Shown here: positions 1-33,224 of the stretch, piece by piece
How the letters are laid out: the number at the start of each line of letters is the position of its first letter
Numbering within the stretch: position 1 is the stretch's first letter
Origin: Clostridia bacterium
Lineage (GTDB): Bacteria > Bacillota > Clostridia > HGM11327
Reading direction: 5' to 3'
Length of the DNA: 33,531 nucleotides
Assembly (NCBI GenBank): GCA_017935525.1
Contig: JAGBHJ010000122.1
Location: forward strand, 1-33,531
Position numbers and translations under genes: made by a program
The notes under the pieces: model-generated
Databases searched by the model: none
The model's input: the letters and a program-made list of their open reading frames with translations, nothing else
Told to the model about the DNA's origin: nothing

Positions 1-330
1 GGCATAGTCCTCAACCGAAAAGCCCGAGATGTTTGCCATAACCTTTTTGTTGAAGCATTTTGAAAGCTTTGGAAGCTCTTCTGAAATGACCTTTTCTACG
101 CCGGGGTTCTGGAGCCCGACTGCGTTTATCATACCTGCGGAGCACTCAGCTATTCTGGGCGTAGGATTGCCAAATCGGGGATCCTTTGTTGTGCCCTTAA
201 ACGAGAAGGTACCCAGACAGTTTATATCGTAAAGCTCTGCAAATTCGTACCCAAAGCCAAACGTACCGGAGGCGGGGATCACGGGGTTGTCCAGCTGAAT
301 GCCTGACAACGTAACCTTTGTATTTACCAT
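1..330 (-). CDS. pyrD: dihydroorotate dehydrogenase catalytic subunit (class 1B PyrD), first 110 codons; gene runs off the left edge
   Basis: My reverse-strand translation from ATG 330-328 reads MVNTKVTLSGIQLDNPVIPASGTFGFGYEF...CSAGMINAVGLQNPGVEKV, a typical PyrD N terminus. The start overlaps the pyrK stop (324-326). It is the last gene in the order pyrC-carA-carB-pyrK-pyrD. Confidence 0.85.
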   Translation of the reverse strand, partial: MVNTKVTLSGIQLDNPVIPASGTFGFGYEFAELYDINCLGTFSFKGTTKDPRFGNPTPRIAECSAGMINAVGLQNPGVEKVISEELPKLSKCFNKKVMANISGFSVEDYA

Positions 331-1058
331 ATTATCTCCTCCTTTACAAGCACGGGGCCGTCCTTGCATATTCTCTTGTTGCCGTATTTTGTCTTGCAGC
401 TGCAGCCCATGCAAGCACCAAAGCCACAGCCCATTCTCTCCTCAAAGCTGAACTGACCGCTTGTCTTTGTTGCGTTGTACACAGCCTTGAGCATGGGCTC
501 GGGACCACAGGTATAGAAATATGTATAATCGCCAACCTCGTCAAAGGCGTTTGTTACAAAGCCCTTGATGCCGTAGGAGCCGTCAACCGTTGTCACAAGC
601 ACTCTTGCTCCCAGATCGGCAAAGTCCTTTTCGCAGAATATCTCGTCCTTTGTGTTAAAGCCCAGTATCACGCTGACCTGCTTGCCCTCCGCTATCAGCT
701 TTTTGCAGAGGTTATACATGGGCGGCACGCCAACGCCACCGCCGATAAGCATTACCTTGTCGCCGGAAACGGAGGTATCGTAGCCGTTGCCCAAGCCAAC
801 AAGAACGTCCAGCTTTTCCCCTGCCTGCATTTCTGCCATCTTTTCCGTGCCGACGCCAACCACCTTGTATATTATGGTAATGCTGTCCTCGGTATAATCC
901 GCCACGGAAATAGGTCTGCGCAAAAACAAGCCGTCCAGCTTTATGTTTACAAACTGACCCGAGGCTGTAACAGCCGCCCCATTGCCCTCAAGCGTCATTT
1001 TGTAAACGCTTGAGGTAAGGGGAATATTTTCTTTTATAGTATAAATATCCTGTATCAT
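324..1058 (-). CDS. pyrK: dihydroorotate dehydrogenase electron-transfer subunit (PyrK)
   Basis: 244-aa ORF with ATG at 1058-1056. It has ferredoxin-reductase-like blocks (RRPISV, MLIGGGVGVPP) and a C-terminal 2Fe-2S Cys cluster (CGFGACMGCSC...C). It lies between carB and pyrD. Confidence 0.9.
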   Translation of the reverse strand: MIQDIYTIKENIPLTSSVYKMTLEGNGAAVTASGQFVNIKLDGLFLRRPISVADYTEDSITIIYKVVGVGTEKMAEMQAGEKLDVLVGLGNGYDTSVSGDKVMLIGGGVGVPPMYNLCKKLIAEGKQVSVILGFNTKDEIFCEKDFADLGARVLVTTVDGSYGIKGFVTNAFDEVGDYTYFYTCGPEPMLKAVYNATKTSGQFSFEERMGCGFGACMGCSCKTKYGNKRICKDGPVLVKEEIIW

Positions 1059-1077: not shown

Positions 1078-4000
1078 TTATGCGTCGATGGTGGAGATGC
1101 ACAACGTGGTCTCCTCCAGCACGTCCAGAAGCACCTTAACAGTATCCAGCGCGGTAAACATAGTTACGTTGTTTTCAACTGCAGCTTGGCGGATCTCATA
1201 GCCGTCAGATGCGCCGCCGGGAGAATTCATATCCCTTGTGTTGATAACGTAAGTCACGTAGCCGCCTCTGATACCCTCAAGTATCTCGTCGCTTCCCTCG
1301 CTGATCTTCTTTACAGCGTGAGTACGGATACCGTTCTCCTTAAAGAAGTTTGCTGTGCCCTCGGTAGCCTGAATGTTAAAGCCCATATTGTAGAAACGTC
1401 TGATAAGGGGCAATGCCTCCTGCTTATCCTTGTCCGCAATTGTGGCAAATACAGTACCGTAGTTCATCACGTTCATTCCGGATGCCTGCAAAGCCTTGTA
1501 CAATGCTCTTGTAAGGCTGTTGTCGTAACCGATAGCTTCGCCCGTGGACTTCATCTCAGGTGAAAGGTATGCATCCAAACCTCTCAGCTTGGAGAATGAG
1601 AACGCAGGTGCCTTTACGTAGTAGCGCTTCTTCTCCTCGGGGTAGATTGTGGTAAAGCCCTGCTCCTTAAGAGATACGCCCAAAATTGCCAGCGTACCGA
1701 TGTCTGCCAGACTGTAGCCCGTTGCCTTGGAAAGGAAGGGCACTGTTCTGGAGGATCTGGGGTTGACCTCGATTATATAAACGTCATCCTTTTCATCAAC
1801 GATAAACTGGATGTTGTACAGACCAATAATTCCGATGCCCAAGCCCAGCTTAACTGTGTAGTCAAGGATGGTATCCTTTACCTTCTGTGTGAGAGTAAAT
1901 GAGGGGTAAACGCTGATGGAGTCACCGGAGTGGATACCTGTTCTCTCTACCAGCTCCATGATGCCGGGTACGAATACGTCCTTGCCGTCACATACCGCAT
2001 CGATCTCTACCTCTCTGCCCTGGATGTACTTGTCAACAAGCACGGGCTTGTCCTCGTCTATCTCAACGGCTGTTTTGAGGTAATGTCTGAGCTGATCCTC
2101 GTCCGCAACTATCTGCATTGCTCTGCCGCCCAATACAAAGGACGGACGTACAAGCACGGGGTAGCCGATCTCTCTTGCGGCGTTTACGCCGTCCTCTATC
2201 TTTGTAACTGCCTTGCCCTTGGGCTGAGGAATGTTGAGGGATCTGAGCACCTTTTCAAAGGCATCACGGTTTTCTGCCTTTTCGATGGCGTCGCAATCCG
2301 TACCGATGATCTTAACACCTCTTGAAGCCAAAGGCTCTGCAAGGTTGATAGCCGTCTGTCCACCCAAAGATGCGATAACGCCGTAGGGCTTTTCCAGATG
2401 GATGATGTTCATAACGTCCTCTGTACAGAGAGGGTCAAAGTACAGCTTGTCGGAGGTTGTGTAGTCCGTAGAAACTGTTTCGGGGTTGTTATTGATGATA
2501 ATAGCCTCAAAGCCTGCCGCCTTGATGGTCTTTACCGCATGAACTGTGGAGTAGTCAAACTCTACACCCTGACCAATTCTTATAGGACCGGAGCCAAGAA
2601 CGATTACCTTTTTCTTGTCGGACACGATGGACTCATTCTCATCCTCATATGTTGAGTAGAGGTAGGGGATGTCGCTCTTGATCTCTGCCGCGCAGCTGTC
2701 TATCATCTTGTAAACCGGGAAGATATCGTTCTTCTCGCGGAGGTTGTATATCTCTATTTCCTTTGTATTCCAGAGCTTTGCGATGTAAGCGTCGGAGAAG
2801 CCCATCTTCTTTGCCGCCTTAAGCACGCTGATGTCGCCCACGTTTGCCTTTACCTCATGCTCCATAAGGATGATGTTCTTTATCTTCTCAAGGAAGAACA
2901 TATCGATCTTTGTAGCATCCCAGATAAGGCCCATGTCGGCACCGTGCCAAATAAGCTCTGCAATTGCGTAAATTCTGTCGTCCGTGCCGTCCTTGATGTA
3001 CTCCATCAGCTGGTCGTAATCGTAGGAGTCGAACTTTTCCATATGTACGTGGTTAACGCCTATCTCCAATGATCTGCAAGCCTTCAGCAAGCTCTCCTCA
3101 AAGGTTCTGCCGATGGACATTACCTCGCCCGTAGCCTTCATCTGTGTGGAAAGCTTGTTGTTTGCGGAGGTGAACTTATCAAAGGGGAATCTGGGCATCT
3201 TTGTTACGATGTAGTCGATGGAAGGCTCGCAAGCAGCCAGCGTGTTTGCGATCTTGATCTCGTCCAGATTCATACCAACTGCGATCTTTGCAGTAACTCT
3301 TGCAATGGGGTAACCGCTTGCCTTTGACGCCAATGCGGAGGAACGGGAAACTCTGGGGTTTACCTCAATGAGGTAATACTTAAATGAGTGAGGATCCAAC
3401 GCAAACTGTACGTTGCAGCCACCTGCAACCTTCAACGCCTTGATGATCTTGAGGGCGCTGTCACGGAGCATATGGTATTCCTTGTTTGTAAGCGTCTGTG
3501 CGGGAGCAACAACTATGGAGTCACCTGTGTGGATACCAACGGGGTCAAGGTTTTCCATGCTGCAGATGGAGATTGCAGTGTCATTACCGTCACGCATAAC
3601 CTCAAACTCTATTTCCTTGTAGCCCTTGATGCTCTTTTCTACCAGCACCTGATGTACGGGGGAAAGATGGAGAGCGTTCTTAAGAATATCTGCGCACTCC
3701 TTCTCGTTGTCAGCAAAGCCGCCGCCTGTTCCGCCCAGCGTAAATGCGGGACGAAGCACTACCGGGTAACCTATCTCCTCTGCCGCCGCAAGGCCCTCCT
3801 CTATGGAGTAAGCGATCTTTGAAGGGATAACGGGCTCGCCCAATCTTTCACAAAGCTCCTTAAAAAGCTCTCTGTCCTCTGCCATCTCGATGCTTTCAAC
3901 AGAGGTACCCAAAAGCTCTACGTTACACTCCTTAAGTATGCCCTTTCTGCCCAGCTGCATAGCCAAGTTGAGGCCTGTCTGTCCGCCGATGCCGGGGACG

Positions 4001-4257
4001 ATAGCGTCGGGACGCTCGTATCTTATAACCTTTGCGATATACTCCAATGTGAGAGGCTCCATATATACCTTGTCTGCAATGGATGTATCCGTCATTATAG
4101 TTGCAGGGTTGGAGTTGCACAGCACAACCTCATAGCCCTCTTCCTTGAGTGCGAGGCATGCCTGCGTGCCTGCATAGTCAAACTCAGCAGCCTGGCCGAT
4201 AACTATCGGGCCGGAGCCAATAACCATTATCTTTTTTAAGTCAGTTCTCTTTGGCAT
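1078..4257 (-). CDS. carB: carbamoyl-phosphate synthase large subunit
   Basis: 1059-aa ORF starting [33 protein letters not shown] second ATP-grasp half is present ([19 protein letters not shown]), as are [14 protein letters not shown] and a C-terminal MGS-like domain. SD GGAG lies upstream of ATG 4257. Confidence 0.95.
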
Positions 4258-4282: not shown

Positions 4283-5362
4283 TTATTTCTTCATGCTGTC
4301 AATAAACTTGTCAAACAGGAACGCGCTGTCCTGAGGACCGGGCGCACTTTCCGGCTGGAACTGCACGGCAAAAACGTTGTCCTCAACGCACTCGATGCCT
4401 GCCACCGTGCCATCCATAACGTTCTGATGAGTGATCACCAATCCCGTACCGCAAAGGGACTCTGCGTCAACCGCATAGGAGTGGTTCTGATACGTGCTTA
4501 TCACCTTACCGTCAGCCAGGCTCTTTACTGCCGCGCCGCCCCTGTGGCCGCACTTGAGCTTGTACGTCTTTGCGCCGTAAGCAAGGCTCAGTATCAGATT
4601 ACCCAGGCCGATGCCAAACATGGGGAACTTGCCCTTAAGCTCTCTTACCAGCTCTATTACCTCCGCCGCATCCTCGGGATTGCCGGGACCGTTGGAAACC
4701 AGCACGCCATCGGGGTTCATTCTTGTGAGAGTTGCCGCATCAATGTTGTGAGGAACCACAGTAACGTTACAGCCTCTTGCGTTAAGCTCGCGGATGATGC
4801 CGTTTTTAACGCCGCAGTCGATAACCACTACCGTGTACTTGGCGCTTGCCGTTCTGGAGTACCATCTCTTTTTGCAGCTTACCCTTGCAACACCGTCAGT
4901 AGGCACGGGAGTATTCTTGATGATCTCCAACGCCTCCTCCACGGGTGTGGAAGCTGACGTCATCAGCACGCGCTTTGTGCCGGTATCTCTGATGCTTCTG
5001 GTGAGCTTTCTTGTATCTATACCTGCAATACCGGGAATGTGGTATTCCGCCATAACCTCGGAAAGGGTCTTTGTATATCTGAAGTTGGAGGGCTGGTCGT
5101 TATACTCTCTTACTACAAGACCGTCAATAGTGGGGGTCTTTGCCTCGTCGTCCTCGTCAGTCATACCATAATTACCGATGAGAGGATACGTCATCACCAC
5201 CATTGTATTTGTGTTGGAAGGGTCAGATAGTATCTCCTGATACCCGACCATGGACGTGTTAAACACGATCTCGCTGACCTTGTCGCAGTCATCGCCAAAG
5301 CCGTAGCCGTAATACTGGCTGCCGTCTTCAAGAACTATTTTTCTGTCAAAATCCTTTATCAT
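4283..5362 (-). CDS. carA: carbamoyl-phosphate synthase small-subunit homolog with degenerate glutaminase active site
   Basis: 359-aa ORF collinear with CarA (N-terminal CPSase small-chain domain plus a class-I GATase fold, SNGPGNP). The nucleophile elbow reads FGIGLGNL instead of FGICLGHQ. The His-Glu motif reads FQPE instead of GHPE. Its ATG overlaps the pyrC stop (ATGA at 5362-5359). Confidence 0.85.
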
Positions 5363-6594
5363 ACCGCTTTACCTCCGTATATCGTTGCTATAAGCTTGCC
5401 ATGGACCTCCTCACCGTCAAAGGGTGTTGCCCTGCCCATGGAAGCGAAGCACGCAGAATCTATAATATTTTTATTTTTCAAATCCCAAATGCACCACTCG
5501 TCTGCCCTTTGCTCTATGCCAAAGCGCTTTCTGGGGTTTATCGCCATCAGCTCCACCAGCTTTTCCAGAGTGATGATGCCTTCCATCACCAGCTTGGTAT
5601 AAAGTATGGGGAACGCTGTTTCCAGCCCCACGATACCCATTGCGCTGCCTGCCAGGCCCTTGGATTTTTCCGCATGGCTGTGGGGCGCATGGTCCGTAGC
5701 AATCATGTCTATGGTGCCGTCCTTGATGCCTTCTATAAGCGCAAGCCTGTCCTCATCGCTTCTCAAGGGAGGATTCATCTTGTACCTGCCCTCCTCCTTC
5801 AGCATCATATCGTTCATGGTAAGGTAGTGGGGGCCTGTTTCGCAGGTTATATCCACTCCCCTTGCCTTTGCCTGTCTTATCAGCTCCACGCTCTCCTTTG
5901 TGGAGATGTGGCAAACGTGGTATTTTACCCCCGTTTTTTCCGCAAGGCGTATATCTCTTTCTATCTGACCCCATTCGGACTCCGAGCAAATGCCCTTATG
6001 CCCGTGGAGCCTTGCGTATTCGCCGTCATGTATGTAGCCGCCCTTCAAAAGGTCGTTTACCTCGCAATGCGCCGCGATGATCTTGCCAAGGCTCTTTGCC
6101 TTTATCATCGCCTGCTCCATCATACCGTCACTCTGCACGCCCTTGCCGTCATCGGAAAAGGCAATAACGTCCTTTGCCATGCCGTCCATATCGCTGAGCG
6201 TTTCCCCCGCCTCGCCCACGGTGATCGTACCGTAGGGATACACGGGTATTCTTGCCGTTTTTGCTATTATATCCCGCTGGATGGCAAGGTTTTCCACGCT
6301 GTCGGGGGCGGGCTTCAGATTGGGCATGGAGCATACCGCTGTATAGCCACCCTTTGCCGCCGCCGCAGTTCCTGTGGCAATAGTCTCCTTATATGAAAAA
6401 CCCGGCTCACGTAAATGCACATGCACATCGCAAAAGCCGGGGATAATAACACAGTCAGAAATAACAATACCGTCAAAAGTGTCAACGTTGACAGATTCAT
6501 CGACGATTTGGAAATAGTTGTCCCTCAACTCGGCGTTGCATATAACGAATTTTCCGTCACGGTATATCTTCGAATTCTTGATGAATACGTTCAT
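5359..6594 (-). CDS. pyrC: dihydroorotase
   Basis: 411-aa ORF with the amidohydrolase metal-ligand blocks DVHVHLREPG, AAHCE, HVCHIST and ATDHAPH. It is the first gene of the pyr cluster. Confidence 0.9.
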   Translation of the reverse strand: MNVFIKNSKIYRDGKFVICNAELRDNYFQIVDESVNVDTFDGIVISDCVIIPGFCDVHVHLREPGFSYKETIATGTAAAAKGGYTAVCSMPNLKPAPDSVENLAIQRDIIAKTARIPVYPYGTITVGEAGETLSDMDGMAKDVIAFSDDGKGVQSDGMMEQAMIKAKSLGKIIAAHCEVNDLLKGGYIHDGEYARLHGHKGICSESEWGQIERDIRLAEKTGVKYHVCHISTKESVELIRQAKARGVDITCETGPHYLTMNDMMLKEEGRYKMNPPLRSDEDRLALIEGIKDGTIDMIATDHAPHSHAEKSKGLAGSAMGIVGLETAFPILYTKLVMEGIITLEKLVELMAINPRKRFGIEQRADEWCIWDLKNKNIIDSACFASMGRATPFDGEEVHGKLIATIYGGKAV

Positions 6595-6838: not shown

Positions 6839-8032
6839 TTATTTTCTGTCTATGCGGTACATTGCCATCTGTCCGGGGTAAAGACTGATGTATTCTCCGC
6901 TTTCGTACGGCTCCGTCACCTTGCCGTTAAGTATCAGTCCTGTCAGACTGCACTTTTCGTCGTCATAGGTTACGTGCACCGTGGTAGGATCCTTCATTTC
7001 TGCATTTACAAGGCAGAGGTACTCCGTACCGTCCTTGTCCTCAAAGGTACTGATGACCATTCTCTCAAAGGATCTTACATCCTTGATAAGCGGGTGGCTG
7101 TTTTCGCCAAACATGGGGAAGCACATTCTCTGGAAGCCCAGCATCCATGATTCCTTTCTCTTGAGCGTCACCAACAGCTCGCCAAACTGGTCGTTAAACC
7201 TCTTTTGGCAACGACCCAATCTGTCAAAGGTCAACGTTGTATTGCCGTATTCGTCAATAGGTGATCCATGGTAATTGGGAGCAATAATTCTGTCGTAAAA
7301 TCTGAACCAAGTGATACCTTTGATGCCCAGCGCCGCAGAGGTTGTGATCTGCCACATATACTGGTATTCGGTAAACTGCTTGTAGGAGCCGTGAGCAGAG
7401 CAAATGGGAGTTTCCCAGCACTCCATTCCTGCCGCCTCTGCCGCCTCAACAAATGCCTGTATAGTGCGCAGATATCCTGTTACACCGCCGTCACCGTCAG
7501 CCTGGCCGTAATTGTCAAAGCAGATCTCTTTGCAGCCCGTTTCGTCCTTCATCTTTATAAGGTAATTCTTTAACCACTCGGGACTGCTGAAATCCCACCA
7601 TGGAGTATCACCCGACATATTAAGGTAAGGATTCAGCTCGGGAGCGACCCTCTTATGGATGCCCATGGCTCTGATAGCATTGTCAAGAGACTTAGGCGTT
7701 CCCGGCTCGTCACCAACGTGAAAGCCGCGCAATGCGGGGTGACCCTTAAAGCGCTCGTAGTTCTTTCTTACCTGCTCTTCTCTTTTGGCGGCAGCCTCCG
7801 CAGTACAACCGTGGTATCCGCCTCCGCAGTCCAGAATCAGCTCGATGCCCAGCTCGTGGGCTCTGTCCAAGAACTCCAGTGTCTTTTTTGTTTCAGCCTC
7901 GCTGCCTCCGATTATACCCGCAAGCATGACCGTACAGCCGCTTTCAGCCCATTTATCTATTTCCTTTACCGTGTAATTCTCATCGGACATATTGAAGTAT
8001 ACCCAACCTCCGATAGGAAATTTTTTACCCAT
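6839..8032 (-). CDS. uncharacterised cytoplasmic glycoside-hydrolase-like (TIM-barrel-like) protein, array paralog P1
   Basis: The track ORF 6839..8053 begins at a TTG, so I trimmed it to ATG 8032 (MGKKFPIGGWVY), which has a GAAAGGAA SD upstream. It is homologous over its full length to P2-P6, carries KGHPALRGFHVGDEP, and has no signal peptide. The functional label is tentative. Confidence 0.85.
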   Translation of the reverse strand: MGKKFPIGGWVYFNMSDENYTVKEIDKWAESGCTVMLAGIIGGSEAETKKTLEFLDRAHELGIELILDCGGGYHGCTAEAAAKREEQVRKNYERFKGHPALRGFHVGDEPGTPKSLDNAIRAMGIHKRVAPELNPYLNMSGDTPWWDFSSPEWLKNYLIKMKDETGCKEICFDNYGQADGDGGVTGYLRTIQAFVEAAEAAGMECWETPICSAHGSYKQFTEYQYMWQITTSAALGIKGITWFRFYDRIIAPNYHGSPIDEYGNTTLTFDRLGRCQKRFNDQFGELLVTLKRKESWMLGFQRMCFPMFGENSHPLIKDVRSFERMVISTFEDKDGTEYLCLVNAEMKDPTTVHVTYDDEKCSLTGLILNGKVTEPYESGEYISLYPGQMAMYRIDRK

Positions 8033-8122
8033 ACTATTCCTTTCCCTCGGCAAAGCCGAGATCGTTCGTTAATAAATTTTCTCGCAGCCCCGGTCCGCCT
8101 CGTGCCACGCCTTGCCTGCGAC

Positions 8123-9322
8123 TTACCTTCTGTCGATGCGGTAGATCGCCATCTGACCGGGATACAACGAGATATTGCCTCCGCTTCTGTAGCGGCCTTC
8201 GATAGTACCGTTGAGTATCAGCTCCGTCAATCTGCACTTTTCCCTGTCATACGTAACCTGCACGGTTGTATGCTGCTCAAGCTCTGCATTTACAAGGCAA
8301 AGGTATTCCGTACCGTTTTCATCCTCAAAGGTACTGATGACCATTCTCTCAAAGGACTTTATGTCCTTGATAAGCGGGTGGCTGTTTTCGCCGAACATAG
8401 GATAGCTCATTCTCTGGAAGCCCAGCATCCAGGATTCCTTCCTCTTGAGTCTCATCAGCAGCTCGCCAAACTGGTCGTTAAACCTTCTGTGGCAACGCAT
8501 CATCCTTTCGTACGTCAACGTTGTATTGCCATACTCATCAATGGGTGAAGCATGATAGTTTGGTGCGATCTGTCTGTCGTAAAATCTGAACCAGGTGATA
8601 CCCTTGATGCCCAGCGCCGCAGAAGTTGTGATCTGCCACATTATGCCGTACTCGTCCATGCTTTTGTACGCAATATGCGCGGAGCAAAGAGGAGTTTCCC
8701 AGCATTCCAGCCCTGCCGCCTCTGCTGCCTCAACCATGTTTTTTATGATCCTGAAATAATCTGTCCTGCCGCCGTCGTTTATGGTCTGAGCGTAGTTGTC
8801 AAAGCAGACAACTCGGCAATTCGCCTCGTCCTTAAGTCTTTTCATCCATTGAGTAAAGGTAAGGCCGTTGAATTTGCCGTCCATCTTCCACGTGCTGCCA
8901 GCCAGGTTAATGTACGGATCCAGCTCGGGAGCTACTCTCCTTTGGAGACCCAGTGCCAGCACCGTGCCCTCCAAGCCGTCAGTAGTGCTGGGCTCATCAC
9001 CTGCATGGAATCCATACAGCGCAGGATGACCCTTGAATCTTTCGTAAACCTTACGGAAGGCCTCCTCCCGCTGAGCTACGTTGGACTCGTTGCAGCCGTA
9101 GTACGAGCCGGCGCCGCAGTCAAATATCAGCTTCATGCCATACTCTTGGGCCTTGTCCAAAAACCGTTCTGCCTTGCTCCAGTGCTCCTCAGTAGAGCCG
9201 ATACCGCCTGCCAGCATCACCGTACAGCCGCATTTAGCCCATCTTTCAACCTCTGCCTCTGTATAGCTCTTGTCGGACATATCAAAATACACCCAACCGC
9301 CTAACGGAAATTTTCTGCTCAT
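8123..9322 (-). CDS. uncharacterised glycoside-hydrolase-like protein, array paralog P2
   Basis: 399-aa ORF with ATG at 9322, 6 nt after the P3 stop. It carries KGHPALYGFHAGDEP. The C-terminal half is near-identical to P1. Confidence 0.85.
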   Translation of the reverse strand: MSRKFPLGGWVYFDMSDKSYTEAEVERWAKCGCTVMLAGGIGSTEEHWSKAERFLDKAQEYGMKLIFDCGAGSYYGCNESNVAQREEAFRKVYERFKGHPALYGFHAGDEPSTTDGLEGTVLALGLQRRVAPELDPYINLAGSTWKMDGKFNGLTFTQWMKRLKDEANCRVVCFDNYAQTINDGGRTDYFRIIKNMVEAAEAAGLECWETPLCSAHIAYKSMDEYGIMWQITTSAALGIKGITWFRFYDRQIAPNYHASPIDEYGNTTLTYERMMRCHRRFNDQFGELLMRLKRKESWMLGFQRMSYPMFGENSHPLIKDIKSFERMVISTFEDENGTEYLCLVNAELEQHTTVQVTYDREKCRLTELILNGTIEGRYRSGGNISLYPGQMAIYRIDRR

Positions 9323-9328
9323 GTTATC

Positions 9329-10531
9329 TCACTTTCTATCTATGCGGTACATACACATAAGACCGGGGTAAAGGATAGCGCCCTCTCCGTCCTCTATGTC
9401 GATAGGTCTTTCTATCTTACCGTTGAGCAAGACCTCCTTAAGCTCACACTTTGTACCATCATACTTGATGCGAACGTTATTGAGCTTTTCCATCTCCGCG
9501 TTAACGATGCAGAGGTATTCCTTGCCGTTTTCGTCCTCAAAAATGCTGACAAGAGTTTCCTCAAACGTCTTTATTTCCTTGATAAGCTCGTGGCTGTTTT
9601 CGCCAAACATGGGCAAGCTCATTCTCTGGAAACCCACCAACCATGACTCCTTCCTCTTGAGACCCATTATCAGCTCACCAAACTGCTGCTGGAATCTTCT
9701 CTGGCTGCGGAGCAAGCGATAGAACGTCAATGTCTTGTTACCAAATTCGTCAATGGGAGAATCGTGGTAGTTTGCAAGGAAGTTTCTGTCGTACAGTCTG
9801 AACCACGTAATGCCCTTAACACCCAGCGCCGCCGCCGTTGTGATCTGCCACAGCAGCTGGAACTCCGTAAGAGGTCTGTACGCCATATGCGCGGAGCAAA
9901 TAGGAGTTACCCACAGGTCAAGCCCTGCCTCCTCAGCCGCCTCCACAAATGCCTTTATGGAATGGAAATACGCCGTTACGCCGCCGCTGTTTATGGCTTG
10001 AGAATAAACGTCAAAGCACACCTCTCTGCAGCCTGTTTCTGCCTTAAGTCGCTTCATCCATGCCTTAATGCCGCCCTCGCCCCATATATCGCTGTCAGGT
10101 GTTCCGCCTGAGAAATTGATGTACGGGTGCAGCTCGGGAGCGACCTCCTTCTGCAGCTTTACACATCTGATGGTGTTTTCAAGAGCTTCTTTGGTTGACG
10201 GCTCGTCACCTGCGTGGAAGCCGTACAGCGCGGGATGTCCCTTAAATCTCTCGTAGACCTTGCGGAAATTCGCCTTCATGGTCTCATAATTTGCCTCCGT
10301 ACAGCCGTAATAACCGATACCGTCCATACAGATTATCAGCTTCATGCCGTACTCCTGAGCCTTGTCCAGGAATTTCTCCTGTATATCCCAGTCCTCCTCA
10401 CAAAATCTGGAAAGACCGGAGTGGATAACGTTAAATCCACACTCATGCCATGCTTCTACGTCAGCAGGAGTAAAATCCTCCTCTGTAAATTTCTTGTAGA
10501 CCCATGCGCCAAATGGATATTGTTTAGCCAT
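9329..10531 (-). CDS. uncharacterised glycoside-hydrolase-like protein, array paralog P3
   Basis: The track ORF starts at GTG 10540. I prefer ATG 10531 (MAKQYPFGAWVY) because an AGAGGTGA SD lies 6 nt upstream and the N terminus then aligns with P4 (MAKKFQFSAWVY). Confidence 0.85.
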   Translation of the reverse strand: MAKQYPFGAWVYKKFTEEDFTPADVEAWHECGFNVIHSGLSRFCEEDWDIQEKFLDKAQEYGMKLIICMDGIGYYGCTEANYETMKANFRKVYERFKGHPALYGFHAGDEPSTKEALENTIRCVKLQKEVAPELHPYINFSGGTPDSDIWGEGGIKAWMKRLKAETGCREVCFDVYSQAINSGGVTAYFHSIKAFVEAAEEAGLDLWVTPICSAHMAYRPLTEFQLLWQITTAAALGVKGITWFRLYDRNFLANYHDSPIDEFGNKTLTFYRLLRSQRRFQQQFGELIMGLKRKESWLVGFQRMSLPMFGENSHELIKEIKTFEETLVSIFEDENGKEYLCIVNAEMEKLNNVRIKYDGTKCELKEVLLNGKIERPIDIEDGEGAILYPGLMCMYRIDRK

Positions 10532-10543
10532 ATTCTTCACCTC

Positions 10544-11761
10544 TTACTTTCTGTCAATGCGGAACAGCATCATCTGTCCGGGGTAAAGTATCAAGCCCAT
10601 GCTCTCTGAATTCGGGTCAGACGAGCCGTTAAACGGCATCTTAACCTTACCGTTCAGCCTGTATTCTGTCACGGATGCCTTTGTGGAATCATAAACAAAG
10701 CGATAATCCGCAGGCTGCTTTCTTTCTGTGTTAACAAGGGCACAATACTCATTTCCCTCTGCATCCTCAAAAAAGCTCAGCATACCGTTCTCAAAGCTTC
10801 TGATCTCCTTGATAATGTCGTGACACTTGTTGCTGAATATGGGGAATGAGCCATACTGGAAGCCTATAAGATACGTGCTCTTTCTCTTAAGAGTGGGCAT
10901 GATCTCACCAAACTGCGCCATAAATCTTCTCTGGCAACGCATAAGCATCCAATACTGCTCCGTCTTGTAGCCGAATTCATCAATGGGGGAACCGTAGCAC
11001 TCGGGACCAACTGCTCTGTCGTACAGTCTGAACCAGGAAATACCCTTTGCACCTGCCGCAGCCGCCGTTGTGATCTCAAGCATGAATTCATATTCCGTAG
11101 GCACCCTGAAGCACCAATGTCCCGACGCAAGGGACGTCAGCCACCAATCAACACCGGCAGCCTCTGCAGCCTCCGCATGAGTCTTAAGGCTATGGAGGTA
11201 TCCTCTGAAGCCTCCGTCATTTATCATCTGGGAATACTCGTCCCACGTGTAGTAATCAACACCGGTTTCGTCCTTAAAGTATTTCAGCCATTCGGTAAAC
11301 GTTCTGCCTCCCAGCTTTTCCCTGGAGTCATTCATAGTGCTTCCGCGCAGATTGATCCACGGATTAAGCTCGGGAGCTACCTTCTTTTGTATCTTAAGTG
11401 CCTTTATCGTATTTTCAAGCGCATCCTTACTGTTGGGCTCATCGCCACAGTAGAAGCCGTACAAGCCGGGGTGACCCTTTACCTGCTCGTATATTCTGCG
11501 GAAGTTCTCCTCGTACTTTTCCTCACCCATTGAACCCAAAGCCCAATAAGATGTTGAGCCGACGTTGGCTATAAGCTGGATGCCGTTTTCAAAAGCCTTA
11601 TCAAGATACTTTTTCAGCTCAACCAAGTCTTCATCGCTGCCACTCATAGAAGCCGACATGGGCACCGTCAAGCCAAGCTCTGCCCAGCTGTCCACGTCAT
11701 CGGGTGTGATCTCCTTTATAGTAGGGTACACCCAAGCACTAAATTGAAATTTCTTTGCCAT
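10544..11761 (-). CDS. uncharacterised glycoside-hydrolase-like protein, array paralog P4
   Basis: 405-aa ORF with ATG at 11761. It carries KGHPGLYGFYCGDEP and is closest to P5. Confidence 0.85.
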   Translation of the reverse strand: MAKKFQFSAWVYPTIKEITPDDVDSWAELGLTVPMSASMSGSDEDLVELKKYLDKAFENGIQLIANVGSTSYWALGSMGEEKYEENFRRIYEQVKGHPGLYGFYCGDEPNSKDALENTIKALKIQKKVAPELNPWINLRGSTMNDSREKLGGRTFTEWLKYFKDETGVDYYTWDEYSQMINDGGFRGYLHSLKTHAEAAEAAGVDWWLTSLASGHWCFRVPTEYEFMLEITTAAAAGAKGISWFRLYDRAVGPECYGSPIDEFGYKTEQYWMLMRCQRRFMAQFGEIMPTLKRKSTYLIGFQYGSFPIFSNKCHDIIKEIRSFENGMLSFFEDAEGNEYCALVNTERKQPADYRFVYDSTKASVTEYRLNGKVKMPFNGSSDPNSESMGLILYPGQMMLFRIDRK

Positions 11762-11772
11762 ATCTTAACCTA

Positions 11773-13008
11773 TTACTTTCTGTCAATACTAAACAGTATC
11801 ATCTGTCCGGGGTAAAGTATCAAGCCCATATTTGCAGCTTCGGGGTCGGATGAGCCCGTAAATGGCATCTTGACCTTACCGTTGAGCCTGTACTCCGTAA
11901 AGGAGGCCTTTGACCCGTCATAAATAATTCTGAAATCTGCCTGCTGCTTCTTTTCAAGATTTACCAGCGCACAGAATTCCTTGCCGTCCGCACCCTCAAA
12001 GAAGCTTACCAATCCGTTCTCAAAGCATCTGATCTCCTTGATCACGTCGTGGGACTTGTTACTGAATATGGGGAACGAGCCGTACTGGAAGCCAATCAGG
12101 CAGGTCTTCTTTCTCTTAAGACCCAGCATGATCTCACCAAACTGCTGCTGGAATCTTCTCTGACAACGCATCAAAGCCCAGTAATGCTCCGTCTTGCAGC
12201 CATACTCATCAATGGGTGAGCCGTGGTAGTTGGGGGCAATCTTTCTGTCATACAGTCTGAACCAGCAAACGCCCTTTACACCGCAAGCCGCCGCAGTTGT
12301 GATCTGCCACATATATTCATACTCCGTAGGAATACGGAACGCCTCATGGGCGCTGGAAAGCAACGTTGCCCAGCACTCAACGCCTGCCTCATCCGCCGCA
12401 TCAGCGTTTGCCTTAAGTGTTTCAAGATATATTCTTACACCGCCATCGTTGATGGTCTGTGCGTATTCATCAAACGTATAATAATCAACGCCTGTTTCTT
12501 CCTTAACGTACTTGAGCCACTGGGGAAACGTTCTGCCGCCCAAAAGGTCGGGAGTGTACTCCTTTGCCGCACTTCCCTGAAGGTTTATCCACGGATTAAG
12601 CTCGGGAGCGATCCTCTTTTGTATCTTTAACACCTTTACTGTGTTCTCAAGGCTTTCCTTTGTGCCGGGCTCATCACCGCAGAAGAAGCCGTACAGCGCA
12701 GGGTGCCCCTTGATCGCATTATATATTCTTATAAAGTTCTTCTCATACGCTTCTTCCGTCACACCGGCATTCAGAGAATAGTATGCCAGACAGGGCACGT
12801 TTGCAATAAGCTTTATTCCAAGCTCCTGAGCTCTGTCGAGGTATTTTTTGAATTCCTCAAGCTCTGCTTCGCTGCCGCCAATGCTTCCGGCAAGTGTTAC
12901 AGTCAAGCCCAGCTCCGCCCACGTATCGACCTCATTGGGTGTAAACTCCTTCTGGTCCGGATATACCCATGCTCCAAAAGGATATTTTGTTGTGGTATCC
13001 TTTGTCAT
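11773..13008 (-). CDS. uncharacterised glycoside-hydrolase-like protein, array paralog P5
   Basis: 411-aa ORF with ATG at 13008 and an AGAGGTGG SD. It carries KGHPALYGFFCGDEP. Confidence 0.85.
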   Translation of the reverse strand: MTKDTTTKYPFGAWVYPDQKEFTPNEVDTWAELGLTVTLAGSIGGSEAELEEFKKYLDRAQELGIKLIANVPCLAYYSLNAGVTEEAYEKNFIRIYNAIKGHPALYGFFCGDEPGTKESLENTVKVLKIQKRIAPELNPWINLQGSAAKEYTPDLLGGRTFPQWLKYVKEETGVDYYTFDEYAQTINDGGVRIYLETLKANADAADEAGVECWATLLSSAHEAFRIPTEYEYMWQITTAAACGVKGVCWFRLYDRKIAPNYHGSPIDEYGCKTEHYWALMRCQRRFQQQFGEIMLGLKRKKTCLIGFQYGSFPIFSNKSHDVIKEIRCFENGLVSFFEGADGKEFCALVNLEKKQQADFRIIYDGSKASFTEYRLNGKVKMPFTGSSDPEAANMGLILYPGQMILFSIDRK

Positions 13009-16481: not shown

Positions 16482-16525
16482 AAGAGCAAGAAAGCGGCAG
16501 ACTGCCCAATTCTTGCTCTTTTGTT
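16482..16525. terminator. bidirectional terminator between the convergent HAD and udk-like genes
   Basis: An 11-bp perfect stem, AAGAGCAAGAA (16482-16492) pairing with TTCTTGCTCTT (16510-16520). T-rich tracts follow the stem on both strands. Confidence 0.7.
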
Positions 16526-17081
16526 ATTGGTTTACACGTTTTAATATTGCATCCTTTACCATGTCGCAGACAAGGCTCTTGTCCCCCGAGCCGTTGACGA
16601 TCACATCTGCGATCCACTTGGTAGGCTCCACATACTGGTCATGGCGAAATCTTACCATATTAAGGAACACGTCCGTTACCTGTTCAAAGCTCTGTCCCCA
16701 CTGGGCATTTCGTTTGATCCTTCGGGCAAGCCTTTCGTCAGATCTGCAATCCACAAATATCTTCAGATCCAGGCAATCCCTGGTATGCTCATCCCACAGC
16801 ACCAAAAGTCCCTCGGCAATGATCACGTCATTATCCTCTGCTATCATGCCGTCAAGGTCCCTGTGGAAGCCCTGCCAGTCGATAGTGTCGGGACAATTGT
16901 CGTCAACATAAACCTTGCCGTTCAGATGGGACGCCACGTGAGGTCTTTCACTCTCCCGCTTAAAATAGCTGTCCATGTGGATAACACCGATCTTTACATC
17001 GCCAAGCGCGTCCACCAAAAGGTCTGTAAAGGTGGATTTGCCGCTGGCGGTACCGCCCGCTATTCCCACAACCGTTTTCAC
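16524..17081 (-). CDS. udk: uridine kinase / PRK-family nucleoside kinase
   Basis: 185-aa ORF with the P-loop GIAGGTASGKST plus MDSYF and a VIIAEG...LDLKIFVDCRSDERLARRIKR block that is collinear with Udk. GTG start at 17081 with a GGGGGTGA SD. Confidence 0.6.
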   Translation of the reverse strand: MKTVVGIAGGTASGKSTFTDLLVDALGDVKIGVIHMDSYFKRESERPHVASHLNGKVYVDDNCPDTIDWQGFHRDLDGMIAEDNDVIIAEGLLVLWDEHTRDCLDLKIFVDCRSDERLARRIKRNAQWGQSFEQVTDVFLNMVRFRHDQYVEPTKWIADVIVNGSGDKSLVCDMVKDAILKRVNQ

Positions 17082-24602: not shown

Positions 24603-27600
24603 TCAATGCTTGTGAACAAACTTACGTCTCTTGGGGTCGTACACAAATGTGAGTACAAGACCAAAGAATGAAAGTATTGCAAGTATCAACCATGTGTAGA
24701 TGGGTGCTTCACCAAGCTCGGGGTCATATACGTTTACAAACTTGACCTCAACCTCGCCCAAAGCCTTGCCGTTGATCTTTGTTGTTGCTACAAGCTCATC
24801 CTCTGTCACGTCGCTTTCTGCTACCGTGATTACAACTGTGTAAACAGTCTCATCGTAGATAACATGTACGTCCTTGCCCTTAAGCTCATTCATCGTGAAC
24901 TCGTAAACACCTACCTCAAGGCCTTCCAGCGTAAACTTGAAGTTGCCCTCTGCTGTGTTTGTTACCTTCTGGATAACTTTGCCATCCTTATCCTTAAGAA
25001 CAAACTCAAAGTCGCCTGCATCAAGGCTGTTGCCCTTGAACTCCTTGATACCCTGAATCTCAACTGTGATCGTAGGCTTGGGGATCGTGGGATCGTTGTG
25101 CTTATCGTATGTGTTTTCAAATTCGATGGAGTTTGCAGAGCTGTTCTCTACGCCGTAGCTTGCCGTTGCGGAAAGCGTACCGTCAAGGTTGTCTGTAACC
25201 GTGATAATTACTGTGTACTCTCTGCCGTCATACTCAACGCCGGGCATATTGCCTTCGGTCTCTGTTACGGTGTAGTAATAAGTACCAACCTCGTCAAACG
25301 TGAGAGTTGCAAACTCAAACTTGCCCTTGCCGTCAGGTCCGGGTGCTGCGTTTGTTACCTCGTCCGTATAACCCTCGTTGTTTGCAAGAATGAACTCGAA
25401 CATATTTGCTTCAAGTATCTTGCCCACCAACGTCTTGTGACCAAACAAAGTGATCTCGGCAGGTGTTGTTGCCTTGTACTTGTTGGTAAATTCGATCTCG
25501 GTTGCTCTGTCGTTGCCTACGTAATACATAACGTCTGCGGAAAGGTTGCCCTCGCCATCATCGGTTACGCTGATCTCTACTGTGTAGATCGTTTCGTCAT
25601 AGGTCATGCCGCCAATAGTGCCGCTTACCTCGGAGATAGTCACTACAATGTCTTCAGCCTTTGTAAAGCCCAGCTTTTCGATCAAGAACTCGATGCTGCT
25701 GTCAGCGTCAATGTTCTGGAGAACGTATACGGAAGGCTCCTCACCCTCAACCTCTATCTTGAATGTGAACACGTCACTGTCAAGGAAGTGTCTGCCGAGG
25801 ATGTTCTTTGTAGCGTATATCGGCACCTCAAGGTACTTGGGTGTATATACGTTATTGAACGTAATTGCGTAAACAGGGTTATTGGGATCAAACTGCTCGG
25901 GAATGTCGATCAATGTTCTTGTTCCGTCAGCTGTCTCCTTGTAGCAGATAACCTCTGCCACACCGATCTCGCCTGTATCCACTCCGCCGATGAACTTTTC
26001 ACCAATGGTTACCTCAAAGAGGTATCTTGTCTCGTCGTAAGCAACGCCGCCAAGCTTATCCGTGGGGATCAGCTCTCTTACGATGTAGTAATACTTCTGG
26101 CCCAGGGATGCTGCCATTTCGATCTCTACGTCAAAATAACCGTCTGCATCGTTCTTGCCGGAGTCTATCATGCTGCCCTCTGTCCATGTATCGCCGTTGA
26201 CAGTTGCCTCAAATATAGCAAACTCAAACTCATTTGCCTTAAGGTCTCTGCCTGTAAGTGTCTTGATACCGCGGAGAGCCACGTCGATAGTGCTGGGGTC
26301 ATATACGTTTGTAAATTCCAGCTCTGTGCCGTTTATTGCAACGGGTGCAGGAAATGCATCGCCGTTGGCATCAACGGTCTTTTTGATCTCCATACTGTAA
26401 CCCAGAGTACCGTCCAGGTTATCAATAACCGTTATGGAGATGGTGTACTGACTTTCGTCATACTGCAGATATCTGTTTACACCCTCAAAGGAGCTTACGT
26501 ATTCCTTGACTGTGTAAACCAAAGTTCTGCCGGCGTCTTCTGCCTTAAGCTGGATGTCAAAGGATGCTTCGCCGTTATCGTCCGTTACCGCATATGTGCC
26601 AACAAGGGCGCCGCTTGCATCGTAAAGACCAAACTTAAAGCCTTCGGGTGTAACGTTATGGTTTACGCCCTGAGGATTGGAGATCAGCTTCTTGATGGAA
26701 ACAAGACCGTCAATGTCAAGATCCTCTGCATCGTACTCGTTAACAAATGCCAGCTCTGTCTTTTCTTCGTTGCCTACTGTATAGTCAACAGAAGAAGAAA
26801 GTGTGCCATCGCCGTTATCCGTTATTGTTACCACAACCGTATAAACAGTTTCGTCGTAAGTAACGCCGCCAATGTTGCCCTTAACCTCGTTTACTGTGTA
26901 AGTATATACACCTGCGTGTGTATACTGTCTGGGTGCAAACTCAAATCCTGCGATATTGTTTGCATTAGCCGCGCCGTTATCTGCTGTGTCAAGCACGGAG
27001 CCACTCAGATTCTTCAGCTGGAATGTAAACTCTCCATCCTCAAGCTCTCTGCCGATAAGCTCCTTTGTACCCTCGATCACAACGTCAATGGGCTCGGGAG
27101 TGTATGTGTTTACAAAGTCAATAACGTAAACAGGATTGTTGGGATCAAATGCACCGGGCACGTTGATCTCTGTTTGAACGGTGTTGCCGCCCTCAACTGT
27201 TTCCTTTGTTACCTTGATGGTGTTGATGCCGTAAACGCCGTCAACGTGATTCAAGGTGTAAGAAATCAGATATCTTGACGTATCGTAAGTGATATAATCA
27301 AGCTTGGTCGCAGGAATGATCTCCTCTATGATCACATAGTAGATCTTGCCCTCGTCAGGCTCAGTAGTAAGGTCAAGACGGAATTCTCCATCCTTATCGT
27401 TAAATGCTGTATCAACCGCATCGCCAACCTTGATCCATTGAGAGCCGCGAACCTCAGCCTTCCAGATACCAAACTCAAACTCGCCTGCTTCAACAGCCTT
27501 GCCGATAAGAGTCTTGTGACCCGCTACCGTGAAGTAAACGTTGGAAGGATCGTAAACGTTTTCAAACGCAACAGAAACGTTGGTGTTGTCACTGAGCACA

Positions 27601-30600
27601 CCCTCTGCAATAACCGGAGGCTGTGCAATAGCCGCGCCGTCGCTGCCGATGATCTTTGTTACCTCGTAATCTACCACAAGTGTACCGTCGCCGTCGTCAG
27701 TTACGTCCAGCTTGATCTGATATACGGAGCCATCATACTTCAGCGCAACGTTCTTTCCATCAAAGGGATCTGCGACCTCCTTCAGCGTGTAGTAGAATGT
27801 CTTGCCTACCGCAGCGCCGTTGGTGTTGTCGATCTGGATGGTTACCTTTGCTTCGCCGTTTGCATCTGTTACAACGTAATCGCCAACTCTTACGTTGTTC
27901 TCATCGTAAAGACCGAATACAAAGCCTTCCTTTGTCAAGCCGTTAGGCAATGTAACGTCGGACGTTACAGTCTTGTCGATGGTGATAGCAAATGTCTCAT
28001 CCTCTGCAACGTAGTCGTTGTTAAAGATGATAGCGCCGTCAACCGTGCCGTTGATGGTCTTTACAACGTTCAACGTACCGTCACCGTTGTCAGAAAGAGT
28101 TACCTGAACTCTGTACTCCGTGGAGTCGTATGTTACGCCGTCGATAGTCTGGCCTGCGTTCTTTTCCACTATTACGTAGTAGAAGCTGCGGCCTGCGTTT
28201 ACATCGTCGATATCATACTGGATAGCGTCAAATGCGAATCTACCGTTAGCGTTTACCTTTGCTGTAAGTACGGGTGTAAGTCCGTCGATGGACCAGTTGC
28301 TGCCCGTTCTGTAAAGCAGGATCTCAAACTCGTCCGCTGTGATATCTCTGCCGTCAAGCTCCTTAAGGCCTCGGAAGAGTGCCACGCCCGTAGCGTCGTA
28401 TTCGTTTGTAAATACTATGCCAACGTCTGCATGAGTTGATATTGCGCCCTTCTTTACCACGCTTTCGATAGAAGCCTCAGCGCCGTTGCTCTGTGCATAC
28501 TGTGCAGGGGAAACCTTTACAGTTACCTGCCACTCAGCGGGGTCGTATGTCACACCGGGAAGAGTGCCCTGTTTCTCCTTTACTACAAAGTAGTAATAAG
28601 TTTCCTGCATATTCTCCAACTGCAGGGGGTTGGATGTGATGTTAAAGGAACCATCAGCATCGTTTGTTACCGTTTTTACAGGAGCGTTGCCTGTGATGTT
28701 GAACTGGCTGTCAGCCTCCCAAAGCTCAAACTCAAACTCGCCTGCAAGAGGTCTTCTGCCCGTCATCTCCTTGATGCCGCCGATCTCAACCGTGGGTTCT
28801 CCGGGGTTAAATACGTTGTTAAACGCAAATTCCAATTCCTCGGCGTTTTCAACCGCCTGTGTCAGCTTGTTGTCAAGCATAGCGGAGATCGTGCCGTCGC
28901 CGTTATCCACAGCAGTTACGGAGAATACATGCTCCGTCGTGTCGTATGTGATAGCGGAAATTCCACCGCGGAGCTCCTTGATGCCGTAGTAATACGTCTT
29001 GCAAATATCTGCCGCCGTTACGGATAATGTTGCGTCGATCTCGCCGTCAGCATCGGAGGTTACAGTTGTAATCAAGCTGCCGAATTCGTACTCACCGCCT
29101 ACTACGTTTACGTTGTAAATACCGAATTCAAAGCCCTCCAGGCTAAGGCCAAACTCATCAAGGTTACTGATGGGAGCGCCGCTTTCGTCAAGGATATTCT
29201 TCTGGATGTGGAGCATTGCCGTTGCAGAGCCTGTTGCAGCGTATGTGTTTGTGTATTCTGCCTCAATAACGAACTTGTTGTTTGTTTTCGTTACTGTTGC
29301 GTGAGAGTTTGTTTCGTACACGTCAACGATCTCGTACTGACCGTTCATGTCCCTGTCATCCACAACGATATAGAAGTAGAATACATTGGGGTTGTACGTA
29401 ACGCCGCCGATGGTGCCGGAGATCTCTGTTACGCGGTAAGTATAAGTACCTGCCTTTGTAAACTCAAGATCCTGGAGAGGTACGGAGAAGTCAACTGTCT
29501 TGTTGCTTGACGTTGCCGGAAGAAGTTGTCCAATCATCTGGTACTGACCGTCTGACATACGTCTTTCAAACCTAAAGAAGAATCTGTCATCATCCTTCCA
29601 CTCTCTGCCCTCAAGGTTCTTTGTAATATACAGCTCTACGTTTTCGGGAGAAACCCTTGTAGGCTGGTATACGTTTGTAATAGTTACCTTGTTTACTATT
29701 TGGTCAGAAACCGTAGTTGTGTTGATCGACGTAATGTTTATCCAACCGTTTGACGATACGTTTTCAACCATGGGAACTGAGCCTGCGCTTATTTCCTCAA
29801 CCGTTACCTTTGTACCAACGGGGATATCCTTAAGAACTGCCTGCTGTGATGACGCAAGCTCAAAGTTAACGGTGTAATTGCCACTGTTGTCGGTATTTAC
29901 CTGGAGTGTCTTATCAGTTCCGCCAACGTTTGCCGTTATTCCTGCGCTCAGATCACCTCCGACAACGCCGGTAGTATCAAGTGTTACTCTGAAACCGAAC
30001 ATCAACTGATCCAGCGCGTCCGTTGTGATACCGCCATCGGGGATATCTGTGATCTTTTCAATAATAACGTCGTTGTTCTCAACGTATTCGTTAGTAAACT
30101 CTACCTTAGCAATCCATTCACCAAGCAGTACCGTAGCAGTGTTGCCGTTTGCAGTTGCATTAGCAGCATTGGATGCTTCAACCTCAACGCATGCGTACTC
30201 GGAGTTCTGCGGGAGCACCTCTGTTACGTTATACTCACGACCTGCCACCAGGCCTACGATAAAGAACCTCTCGTTTGCGCCCAGAGTAACCGTTACCACT
30301 CCGTTTGCGTTGGATGTAACAGAGCCTTCCGTTACGTTGCCGTCAACGTCTGTCTTTGCAGACTTATATACCGTGTTTGCATCCAAGCCTGTGATCTCAA
30401 AGTCAAAGGAAGGATTACCGATAACTTCCAAAACGTTCTTTATGATCTCTATACCTGTGGAAGGTGTTACCCTCAGTAAACCGTTGTTACCAAGAGCTAC
30501 GTACTCGTGGAAGTGCTCAATGTTACCCTCTGTATGGTTTTCGGAATAGCTGTAAGCGTGCTCCTCAAGAGAACCTGTAACGTTGGTGATCTTATCATGA

Positions 30601-33068: not shown

Positions 33069-33224
33069 AATACATCTCCTTATTCTTATCTTATAAAAAA
33101 CATCAAAAGACATTTTCGCAGAAAATATAAAGTAATCATGAGTGAGTGCCGATTTTCAAACCGTTACAAAACGTAACATCATGTTTTTGAGAAAATCTGC
33201 TCGTCCCCCTCATAATCCATGGTT

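Follow-up and report, generated by a model that had tools for sequence, protein, structure and literature searches.

Probable ammonia dependence of a Clostridia carbamoyl-phosphate synthetase whose small subunit lacks the glutaminase catalytic residues

The stretch of DNA analysed here (the window) is the 33,531-nucleotide contig JAGBHJ010000122.1 of assembly GCA_017935525.1, from an uncultured Clostridia gut bacterium, and it carries a pyrimidine (pyr) operon encoding the small (CarA) and large (CarB) subunits of carbamoyl-phosphate synthetase (CPS). An initial annotation of this DNA had described CarA as a small subunit with a dead glutaminase, reminiscent of vertebrate CPS I, and had offered two readings of it, ammonia-dependent or purely structural. 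Our analysis supports that description through the dead active site, its fixation across lineages, purifying selection on the gene and an intact CarB, and we consider it likely that the CarAB of this operon makes carbamoyl phosphate from free ammonia and that its small subunit is a pseudo-glutaminase with a structural role.

The 359-residue window protein is assigned to the CarA family by its architecture, its score and its genomic context, although it appears to fail that family's functional definition. It matches the TIGR01368 model at 410 bits (cut-off 307.35) over residues 8–359 of 359 and the NF009475 model at 397 bits, has the two-domain architecture of the family and lies next to carB. 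Its closest relatives are Clostridia CarA proteins (72–75% identity), and E. coli CarA is 43% identical. The AlphaFold2 model of the window protein has a mean predicted local distance difference test score of 87.7, with values of 96–97 near the nucleophile elbow, and fits E. coli CarA (1A9X_B/1JDB) with a template modelling (TM) score of 0.91; the fold is thus predicted to be intact, and the residue equivalences are structural besides sequence-based. At the positions of the Cys269-His353-Glu355 triad, by which a glutamine-hydrolyzing CarA is defined, the window protein has Gly252, Gln336 and Glu338.

We established residue equivalence by phmmer alignment against E. coli CarA chains (1JDB, 1C30, 1CS0 and others), whose numbering is used below. 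The nucleophile segment of the window protein (13 residues) aligned with E. coli FGICLGHQLLALA, and the second segment (11 residues) with FQGHPEASPGP, both ungapped around the motif. The alignment bears out the earlier reading that Cys269 and His353 of the triad are gone and that the His of GHQ has become Asn: the substitutions are Cys269→Gly252, His272→Asn255, Gln273→Leu256 and His353→Gln336, with Glu355 kept as Glu338, and the codon positions given for GGC, AAT and CAG were all exact (Table 1). Together with the match to TIGR01368 and to the E. coli CPS fold, this confirms the equivalences on which that reading depended. The G-x-C-x-G elbow of class-I glutamine amidotransferases (GATases) has lost its Cys (FGIGLG vs FGICLG), and the precomputed Peptidase_C26 match (PF07722) is gone in all CarA homologues that lack Cys269, which we call Cys-less below. 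In the E. coli structures, Gln273 is a glutamine-binding residue. Because the window protein lacks both the nucleophile (Cys269, now Gly) and the general base (His353, now Gln) and its glutamine-site residues are altered, glutamine hydrolysis by the class-I mechanism is predicted to be impossible. We also found a remodelled loop that the initial annotation does not mention, in which the conserved GGNHPVK reads GG-AAVK, with the loss of Asn294/His295 directly following the tunnel residue Gly293.

Each catalytic change lies a single base from the canonical codon (TGC→GGC, CAY→CAG), which might have pointed to a sequencing or assembly artefact. Against this, the exact window protein was recovered on 11 contigs, which come from at least six independent samples in three archives (ENA, NCBI and Logan), the state is fixed in related species, and the changes are many and coupled and include an indel. 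An artefact therefore has next to no probability, and sequencing error was rejected, in agreement with the earlier argument from multiple substitutions. Close relatives share the loss, which is fixed in whole lineages. When 5.8 billion protein clusters were searched with a profile of Cys-less sequences, eight clusters (90% identity) showed loss of the Cys among the matches listed, six of them ranking above every canonical CarA and two lower, and all other matches listed carried FGICLGHQ and QYHPE. The Cys and His were kept in 186 of 195 close homologues, the nine exceptions including the window protein and its cluster representative, and in 77 of the 83 CarA proteins encoded in the loci that we fetched.

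Cys-less CarA falls into five groups. Group i, the core clade, comprises the window and the loci L001, L003, L082 and L090, with Gly at position 269 and Gln or Ala at position 353; group ii (L092, P0141 and L060) has Gly and Gln at these positions; group iii (L093, L096 and L097) has Ala at 269 and Cys at 353, with His272 also replaced by Cys; group iv (L028) has Asp at 269 and keeps His353; and group v, four Fusobacterium species, has Val at 269 and Met at 353, with Glu355 changed to Asp. Every Cys-less CarA shows a one-residue deletion at Asn294 together with His295→Tyr (Ala in the window), while GGNHPVK is present in 77 of 77 canonical CarA proteins of the fetched loci. Groups iii and v were found by scanning DNA for K-x-G-H-x-G-G-Y-x-V-K across 185,579 species genomes. 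Of the 15 matches, 11 fell in carA, and all 11 of these lacked Cys269; the other four were chance matches outside carA.

On a neighbour-joining tree of CarB, group i was monophyletic in 100/100 bootstrap replicates, with the canonical L002 as its sister (100/100), and L092 joined group i in 0/100. When the signature columns were left out, each group had canonical sequences as its nearest relatives outside the group, for CarB and CarA alike, and the window's overall nearest relative was canonical L002. The CarA of L092 resembles canonical sequences more closely than it does the core clade, and L028 is 93–97% identical to its canonical relatives. We accordingly count at least five apparent origins of the Cys loss, four in Clostridia lineages and one in Fusobacterium. 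A single origin of all Cys-less CarA was rejected, joint monophyly being seen in 0/100 bootstrap replicates of CarB. Two routes of transfer were likewise rejected: import of the shared changes into L028 by recombination, as sliding-window nucleotide identity to close relatives and to Cys-less lineages revealed no tract, and acquisition by L092 of carA together with the 5' half of carB, as no region of its CarB is closer to the core clade.

Two of these groups carry further peculiarities. In group iii, which consists of Clostridia metagenome-assembled genomes (MAGs) from pig, goat or deer gut by their titles, the motifs read FGIALGCQ and VQFCPES, placing two Cys at former His positions, and SNGPG has become AGGPGAP and Ser47 has become Ala. 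The Fusobacterium MAG species (L101, L104, L105 and L106/L107) have CarA with C269V, H353M, E355D and I268E and the loop GG-Y-P-VK; their carA (L107:8001-9035) and carB (9089-12298) lie between helicase and sodium:alanine symporter genes, outside a pyr operon. A scan for relatives with the Fusobacterium CarA returned only itself and distant canonical CarA.

The CarA of L028 (L103, CAJGCQ010000018.1), encoded at L028:6269-7348 and found as the exact protein on three contigs (NCBI, Logan and ENA), is 93% identical to canonical CarA; it carries C269D, the Asn294 deletion and H295Y, His353 being kept, and its CarB already has T230A, S323T, L352I, T531S and S534A. L028 may be the youngest case and may show the switch at its earliest stage. 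The order that it suggests is that loss of Cys269, remodelling of 294/295 and the five CarB changes come first, and that His353, Ser349 and Phe237 are lost later.

The diversity at the former catalytic positions also bears on the idea that glutamine is still hydrolysed, through a non-canonical nucleophile or base such as a newly gained Cys near the pocket. Cys residues do occur sporadically near the site (F288C in the window and L001, I268C in P0177, and H272C with H353C in the L093 group), but none is common to the lineages: position 288 reads C, C, F, V and A within the core clade, the elbow position is Gly, Ala, Asp or Val, position 353 is Gln, Ala, Cys or Met, and the glutamine-site residues 273 and 313 drift. 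No conserved alternative Cys or His was found, and we regard such chemistry as very improbable. The only alternative-nucleophile candidates are Cys271 of the window (codon 4550-4552, position 288 in E. coli) and position 268 of P0177; the sporadic cysteines at 288 in the window and L001 and at 268 in P0177 are probably incidental.

A dead active site could instead mark a gene in decay, carA being a young pseudogene or dispensable remnant in organisms that are losing CPS owing to salvage of pyrimidines and arginine. CarA has indeed evolved at about twice the canonical rate relative to CarB, and the window encodes a uridine-kinase/PRK-family protein of pyrimidine salvage at 16524-17081(-), some 10 kb away from the genes of de novo pyrimidine synthesis. 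Between Cys-less genomes of the window clade whose CarB proteins are 92–94% identical, CarA identity is only 69–80%, compared with a mean of 90.7% and a minimum of 85.6% in canonical pairs at comparable CarB identity, and the ratio of nonsynonymous substitution rates (dN) of carA and carB is 3.2–3.9 in the window clade vs 1.3–1.9 in canonical control pairs. Yet open reading frames (ORFs) are intact in at least 16 Cys-less sequences spanning 40–95% identity, whole pyr operons are retained, and CarB is full-length and well conserved in the clade. Pairwise within the window clade, the ratio of dN to the synonymous rate (dS) of carA is 0.08–0.11; these values are rough because dS is saturated, and we read them only as an upper-level indication of strong purifying selection. 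Moreover, of the 166 columns that are conserved among canonical CarA proteins, the window, L001 and L003 retain 135 unchanged. Recurrent changes at canonically invariant CarA positions (237, 269, 294, 295, 313 and 353) all lie in the GATase domain, and no such recurrent change was found in the N-terminal domain across the Cys-less lineages, so the relaxed constraint on Cys-less CarA would be local to the GATase domain. Intact ORFs, the dN/dS values and the conserved columns led us to reject a pseudogene, and we hold decay to be scarcely credible. The earlier statement that the remaining protein, carB and the operon context look intact also held, with a full-length CarA, an intact carB and a conserved operon slot.

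The loss of the glutaminase site is accompanied by changes in CarB. At 15 positions where the 59 CarB partners of canonical CarA show at least 95% conservation, the window CarB carries Y218F, T230S, N233S, S253A, R273K, S323T, P345L, F348C, L352I, T531S, S534A, F536I, Y539D, F543L and E619D, with the variants T230A/S and P345L/I within group i. The canonical sister L002 has 0/15 of these substitutions; D244N, which it does share, was for that reason dropped from the signature. An earlier tally, before L090 was added, placed 12 of 13 substitutions in residues 200–553 (hypergeometric P = 2e-5), and the private CarB substitutions of four control clades were spread over its full length. In the E. 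coli enzyme, the only parts of CarB with which the small subunit is known to be in contact are the carboxyphosphate and oligomerisation domains (residues 1–553).

The same substitutions recur in the other Clostridia lineages. Eight of the 15 recur in CarB of L092 (P = 2e-10) and five in that of L028 (P = 1e-7), and CarB of L093, covered over residues 1–378, has 7 of the 9 located there (P = 5e-10). T230A, S323T and L352I are found in CarB of all four Clostridia lineages, and T531S and S534A in all three whose carB extends that far; the five together occur in 0/59 partners of canonical CarA. Glu217 and Ile352 presumably line the tunnel in the E. coli structure. Position 230 lies two residues from gate residue 232 and position 253 two residues from gate residue 251, and the gate residues C232, A251 and A314 themselves are unchanged in the window CarB. 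These three form the gate of the CPS ammonia tunnel (PMC4655335, PMC8674909).

Taken over both subunits, we lean towards the view that bacteria have repeatedly turned CPS into an ammonia enzyme of the CPS I kind, with at least four conversions in gut Clostridia and one in Fusobacterium, by nearly the same route: loss of Cys269, deletion of Asn294 and His295→Tyr, later loss of His353 and, in Clostridia, the CarB set. Such a route would represent not decay but an adaptive recipe by which an intramolecular ammonia tunnel is refitted for external ammonia.

In the enzyme that we propose, CarA would have no catalytic role and would support CarB structurally or allosterically, much as the dead S2 domain does in vertebrate CPS I, and free NH3 from an ammonia-rich gut would have direct access to the carboxyphosphate site of CarB. 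The Asn294 deletion and His295→Tyr/Ala in CarA may reshape or plug the vestigial tunnel from the glutamine site to the gate, and T230A/S, S323T, L352I, T531S and S534A in CarB may help to close or reshape this tunnel and tune the entry of external ammonia. Direct use of ammonia would spare the ATP otherwise spent by glutamine synthetase. Such an activity has precedents, in that bacterial CarB purified without its partner works as an ammonium-dependent CPS (Trotta 1971, cited in PMC8121099), and the E. coli enzyme, when its tunnel is blocked or perforated, loses glutamine use and keeps normal ammonia-dependent activity (PMC4655335, summarising Huang and Raushel). The ammonia-rich anaerobic habitat invoked by the initial annotation fits the record titles of the relatives, which include goat and roe-deer colon and MAGs from animal and human gut, but this support is circumstantial.

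Alternatively, the dead CarA could be purely structural or regulatory, with carbamoyl phosphate supplied by a second, canonical CarA or CarAB elsewhere or by carbamate kinase, and some Firmicutes do have two CPSs (PMC8121099). We think this unlikely. The dead carA sits in the exact orthologous slot of canonical carA, flanked by pyrC and carB and with overlapping stop and start codons, and is therefore translated as the partner of this CarB. Its ATG overlaps the TGA stop of pyrC (5361-5359) as ATGA, consistent with translational coupling, and carB starts 25 nucleotides past the carA stop, co-oriented and with an AGGAG ribosome-binding site of its own. In L001, L090 and L092, carA occupies the same slot of complete pyr operons (pyrC-carA-carB-pyrK-pyrD-pyrF-...-pyrE-pyrB-pyrI). 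The changes in CarB track the loss of the Cys, which argues that this very complex has changed its chemistry, and a second CPS, if present, would still leave the operon-encoded CarAB glutamine-blind.

Several points nevertheless limit the case for an ammonia-dependent CarAB or for its repeated origin. The search for a second carA covered ±10 kb around carA in 82 loci, and found none within that distance. We infer the nitrogen donor of the window CarAB from sequence. The Km of E. coli CPS for ammonia is poor, so efficient use of ammonia by the enzyme discussed here is putative. For the CarB positions, structural roles are assigned from sequence adjacency to the three gate residues and from the tunnel residues Glu217 and Ile352. 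Because groups iii and v were found by a motif search, they have GG-Y-x-VK by construction, and only their lack of Cys269 is independent. Finally, the count of origins derives from neighbour-joining trees and nearest-neighbour identities, and the placement of L093 uses 360 residues.

Human CPS1 (5DOT/5DOU) likewise keeps a CarA-derived moiety with a dead class-I GATase site in which the Cys is replaced (by Ser294), and the window CarA matches its N-terminal moiety with E = 1.7e-59 and TM scores of 0.85–0.88. With its Cys lost, the human enzyme uses free ammonia as substrate, and its old tunnel is blocked by Gln318 at the position of Gly293 (PMC4655335). CPS1 is thus altered at the Gly293 position, whereas Cys-less CarA is altered at the two residues directly after it in every lineage, a change that may affect the tunnel. 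CPS1 has Ser at the Cys position and keeps its His and Glu (PMC4655335), whereas the window CarA has Gly and has also lost the His. Furthermore, CPS1 is one fused polypeptide of about 1500 residues that requires N-acetylglutamate and acts in the urea cycle, whereas the window enzyme is encoded by two ORFs (359 and 1059 residues) in a bacterial pyrimidine operon. Of the features of a CPS I-type enzyme, the window CarA therefore has the replaced Cys, but neither the fused polypeptide nor common descent with vertebrate CPS I/III. Its CarAB is of independent origin and lies outside that lineage, and would be CPS I-like in its working.

Canonical E. coli CarA/CarB resembles the window enzyme in domain architecture, carB pairing, fold and family score, and differs in having Cys269, His353 and Asn294-His295, all missing in the window, and in the 15 CarB positions. 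Engineered E. coli CarA mutants (C269S, 1C30; G359F, 1M6V; and those with blocked or perforated tunnels) are comparable to the window, as losing Cys269 or interrupting the tunnel does away with glutamine use in them and leaves ammonia-dependent synthesis (PMC4655335), and the C269S complex is stable enough to have been crystallised (1C30). A C269G mutant of E. coli was reportedly also made, by Rubino, Nyunoya and Lusty in 1986, with the same outcome for glutamine and ammonia use. Those mutants are laboratory products, whereas the state seen in the window is natural, fixed and repeatedly evolved, with putatively compensatory changes in both subunits. The orphan CarB2 of Bacteroides thetaiotaomicron (BT3866) has been proposed, from fitness data, to use ammonium directly when it is plentiful (PMC8121099). 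This CarB2 lacks a partner CarA and occurs alongside a canonical CarAB, whereas the window keeps its inactivated carA, translationally linked into the operon, and is thus no orphan-CarB system. Every eubacterial CPS characterised to date depends on glutamine (PMC8121099). Our full-text literature searches turned up no account of a bacterial CarA that naturally lacks the Cys; the library searched was incomplete, and a prior description is possible. We rate the novelty as that of a natural Cys-less variant within the known CarA family, its interest being raised by the repeated, near-identical pattern over two subunits.

If the proposal is correct, this natural CarAB with its dead glutaminase subunit would be the second exception among bacteria, independent of the first, and would give vertebrate CPS I a prokaryotic counterpart. 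The recurrence of the same few substitutions in both subunits would amount to a natural experiment on tunnel decommissioning and access of external ammonia, testable by about 10 residue swaps, and the GG-Y-x-VK motif would diagnose ammonia-dependent CPS in genomes annotated as 'glutamine-hydrolyzing'. Since the family score still exceeds the TIGR01368 cut-off, annotation pipelines will give Cys-less CarA this name, and for a dead CarA the automatic functional name is probably wrong. Metabolic models of gut Clostridia and Fusobacterium would then misplace the entry of nitrogen into pyrimidines and arginine. The finding would add to the picture of gut anaerobes that bypass glutamine synthetase when ammonia is plentiful. 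As an example of current naming, the canonical relatives P0010, P0058, P0069, P0098 and P0099 bear the public name 'glutamine-hydrolyzing carbamoyl-phosphate synthase small subunit'.

Table 1. Positions in the window of the pyr genes and of the carA and carB features discussed in the text.
Feature	Position	Strand	Basis or remark
pyrK (dihydroorotate dehydrogenase electron-transfer subunit)	324..1058	-	gene downstream of carB
carB, large (synthetase) subunit, 1059 residues, intact	1078..4257	-	NF003671 1488 bits; TIGR01369 1450 bits vs cut-off 1027
carB segment (residues 218-608) with all 15 lineage-specific substitutions	2434..3606	-	alignment
carA homologue	4283..5362	-	CPSase small-chain N-domain and class-I GATase-fold domain, predicted dead active site
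CAG CCG GAA, Gln336-Pro-Glu338 replacing His353-Pro-Glu355 (CAG = 4357-4355)	4349..4357	-	alignment
GGC GGC GCG GCA, Gly-Gly-Ala-Ala loop after Gly293	4529..4540	-	Asn294/His295 lost, one residue deleted; relatives have GG-Y-x
AAT CTG, Asn255-Leu256 replacing His272-Gln273 (AAT = 4600-4598)	4595..4600	-	alignment
GGC codon, Gly252, at the nucleophile-elbow position of Cys269 (4609-4607)	4607..4609	-	alignment
carA ribosome-binding site GGAGG (5376-5372) and ATG (5362-5360)	5359..5376	-	sequence
pyrC (dihydroorotase)	5359..6594	-	gene upstream of carA in the operon

Outside the operon, we noted two further features of the window. Directly upstream of pyrC, at 6839-13008(-), lie five tandem paralogous ORFs of 399–411 residues with 44–67% mutual identity. 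They have 0 NCBIfam matches, two of them showing sub-threshold DUF4434 matches only, and no obvious signal peptide in the first 50 residues; they represent an expanded family to which no function was assigned. At 24603-33113(-), a 2836-residue ORF encodes 11 FctA/Spy0128-type isopeptide domains together with VWA, SpaA-like, DUF7601 and DUF5979 domains, and looks like a giant pilin or adhesin-like surface protein.

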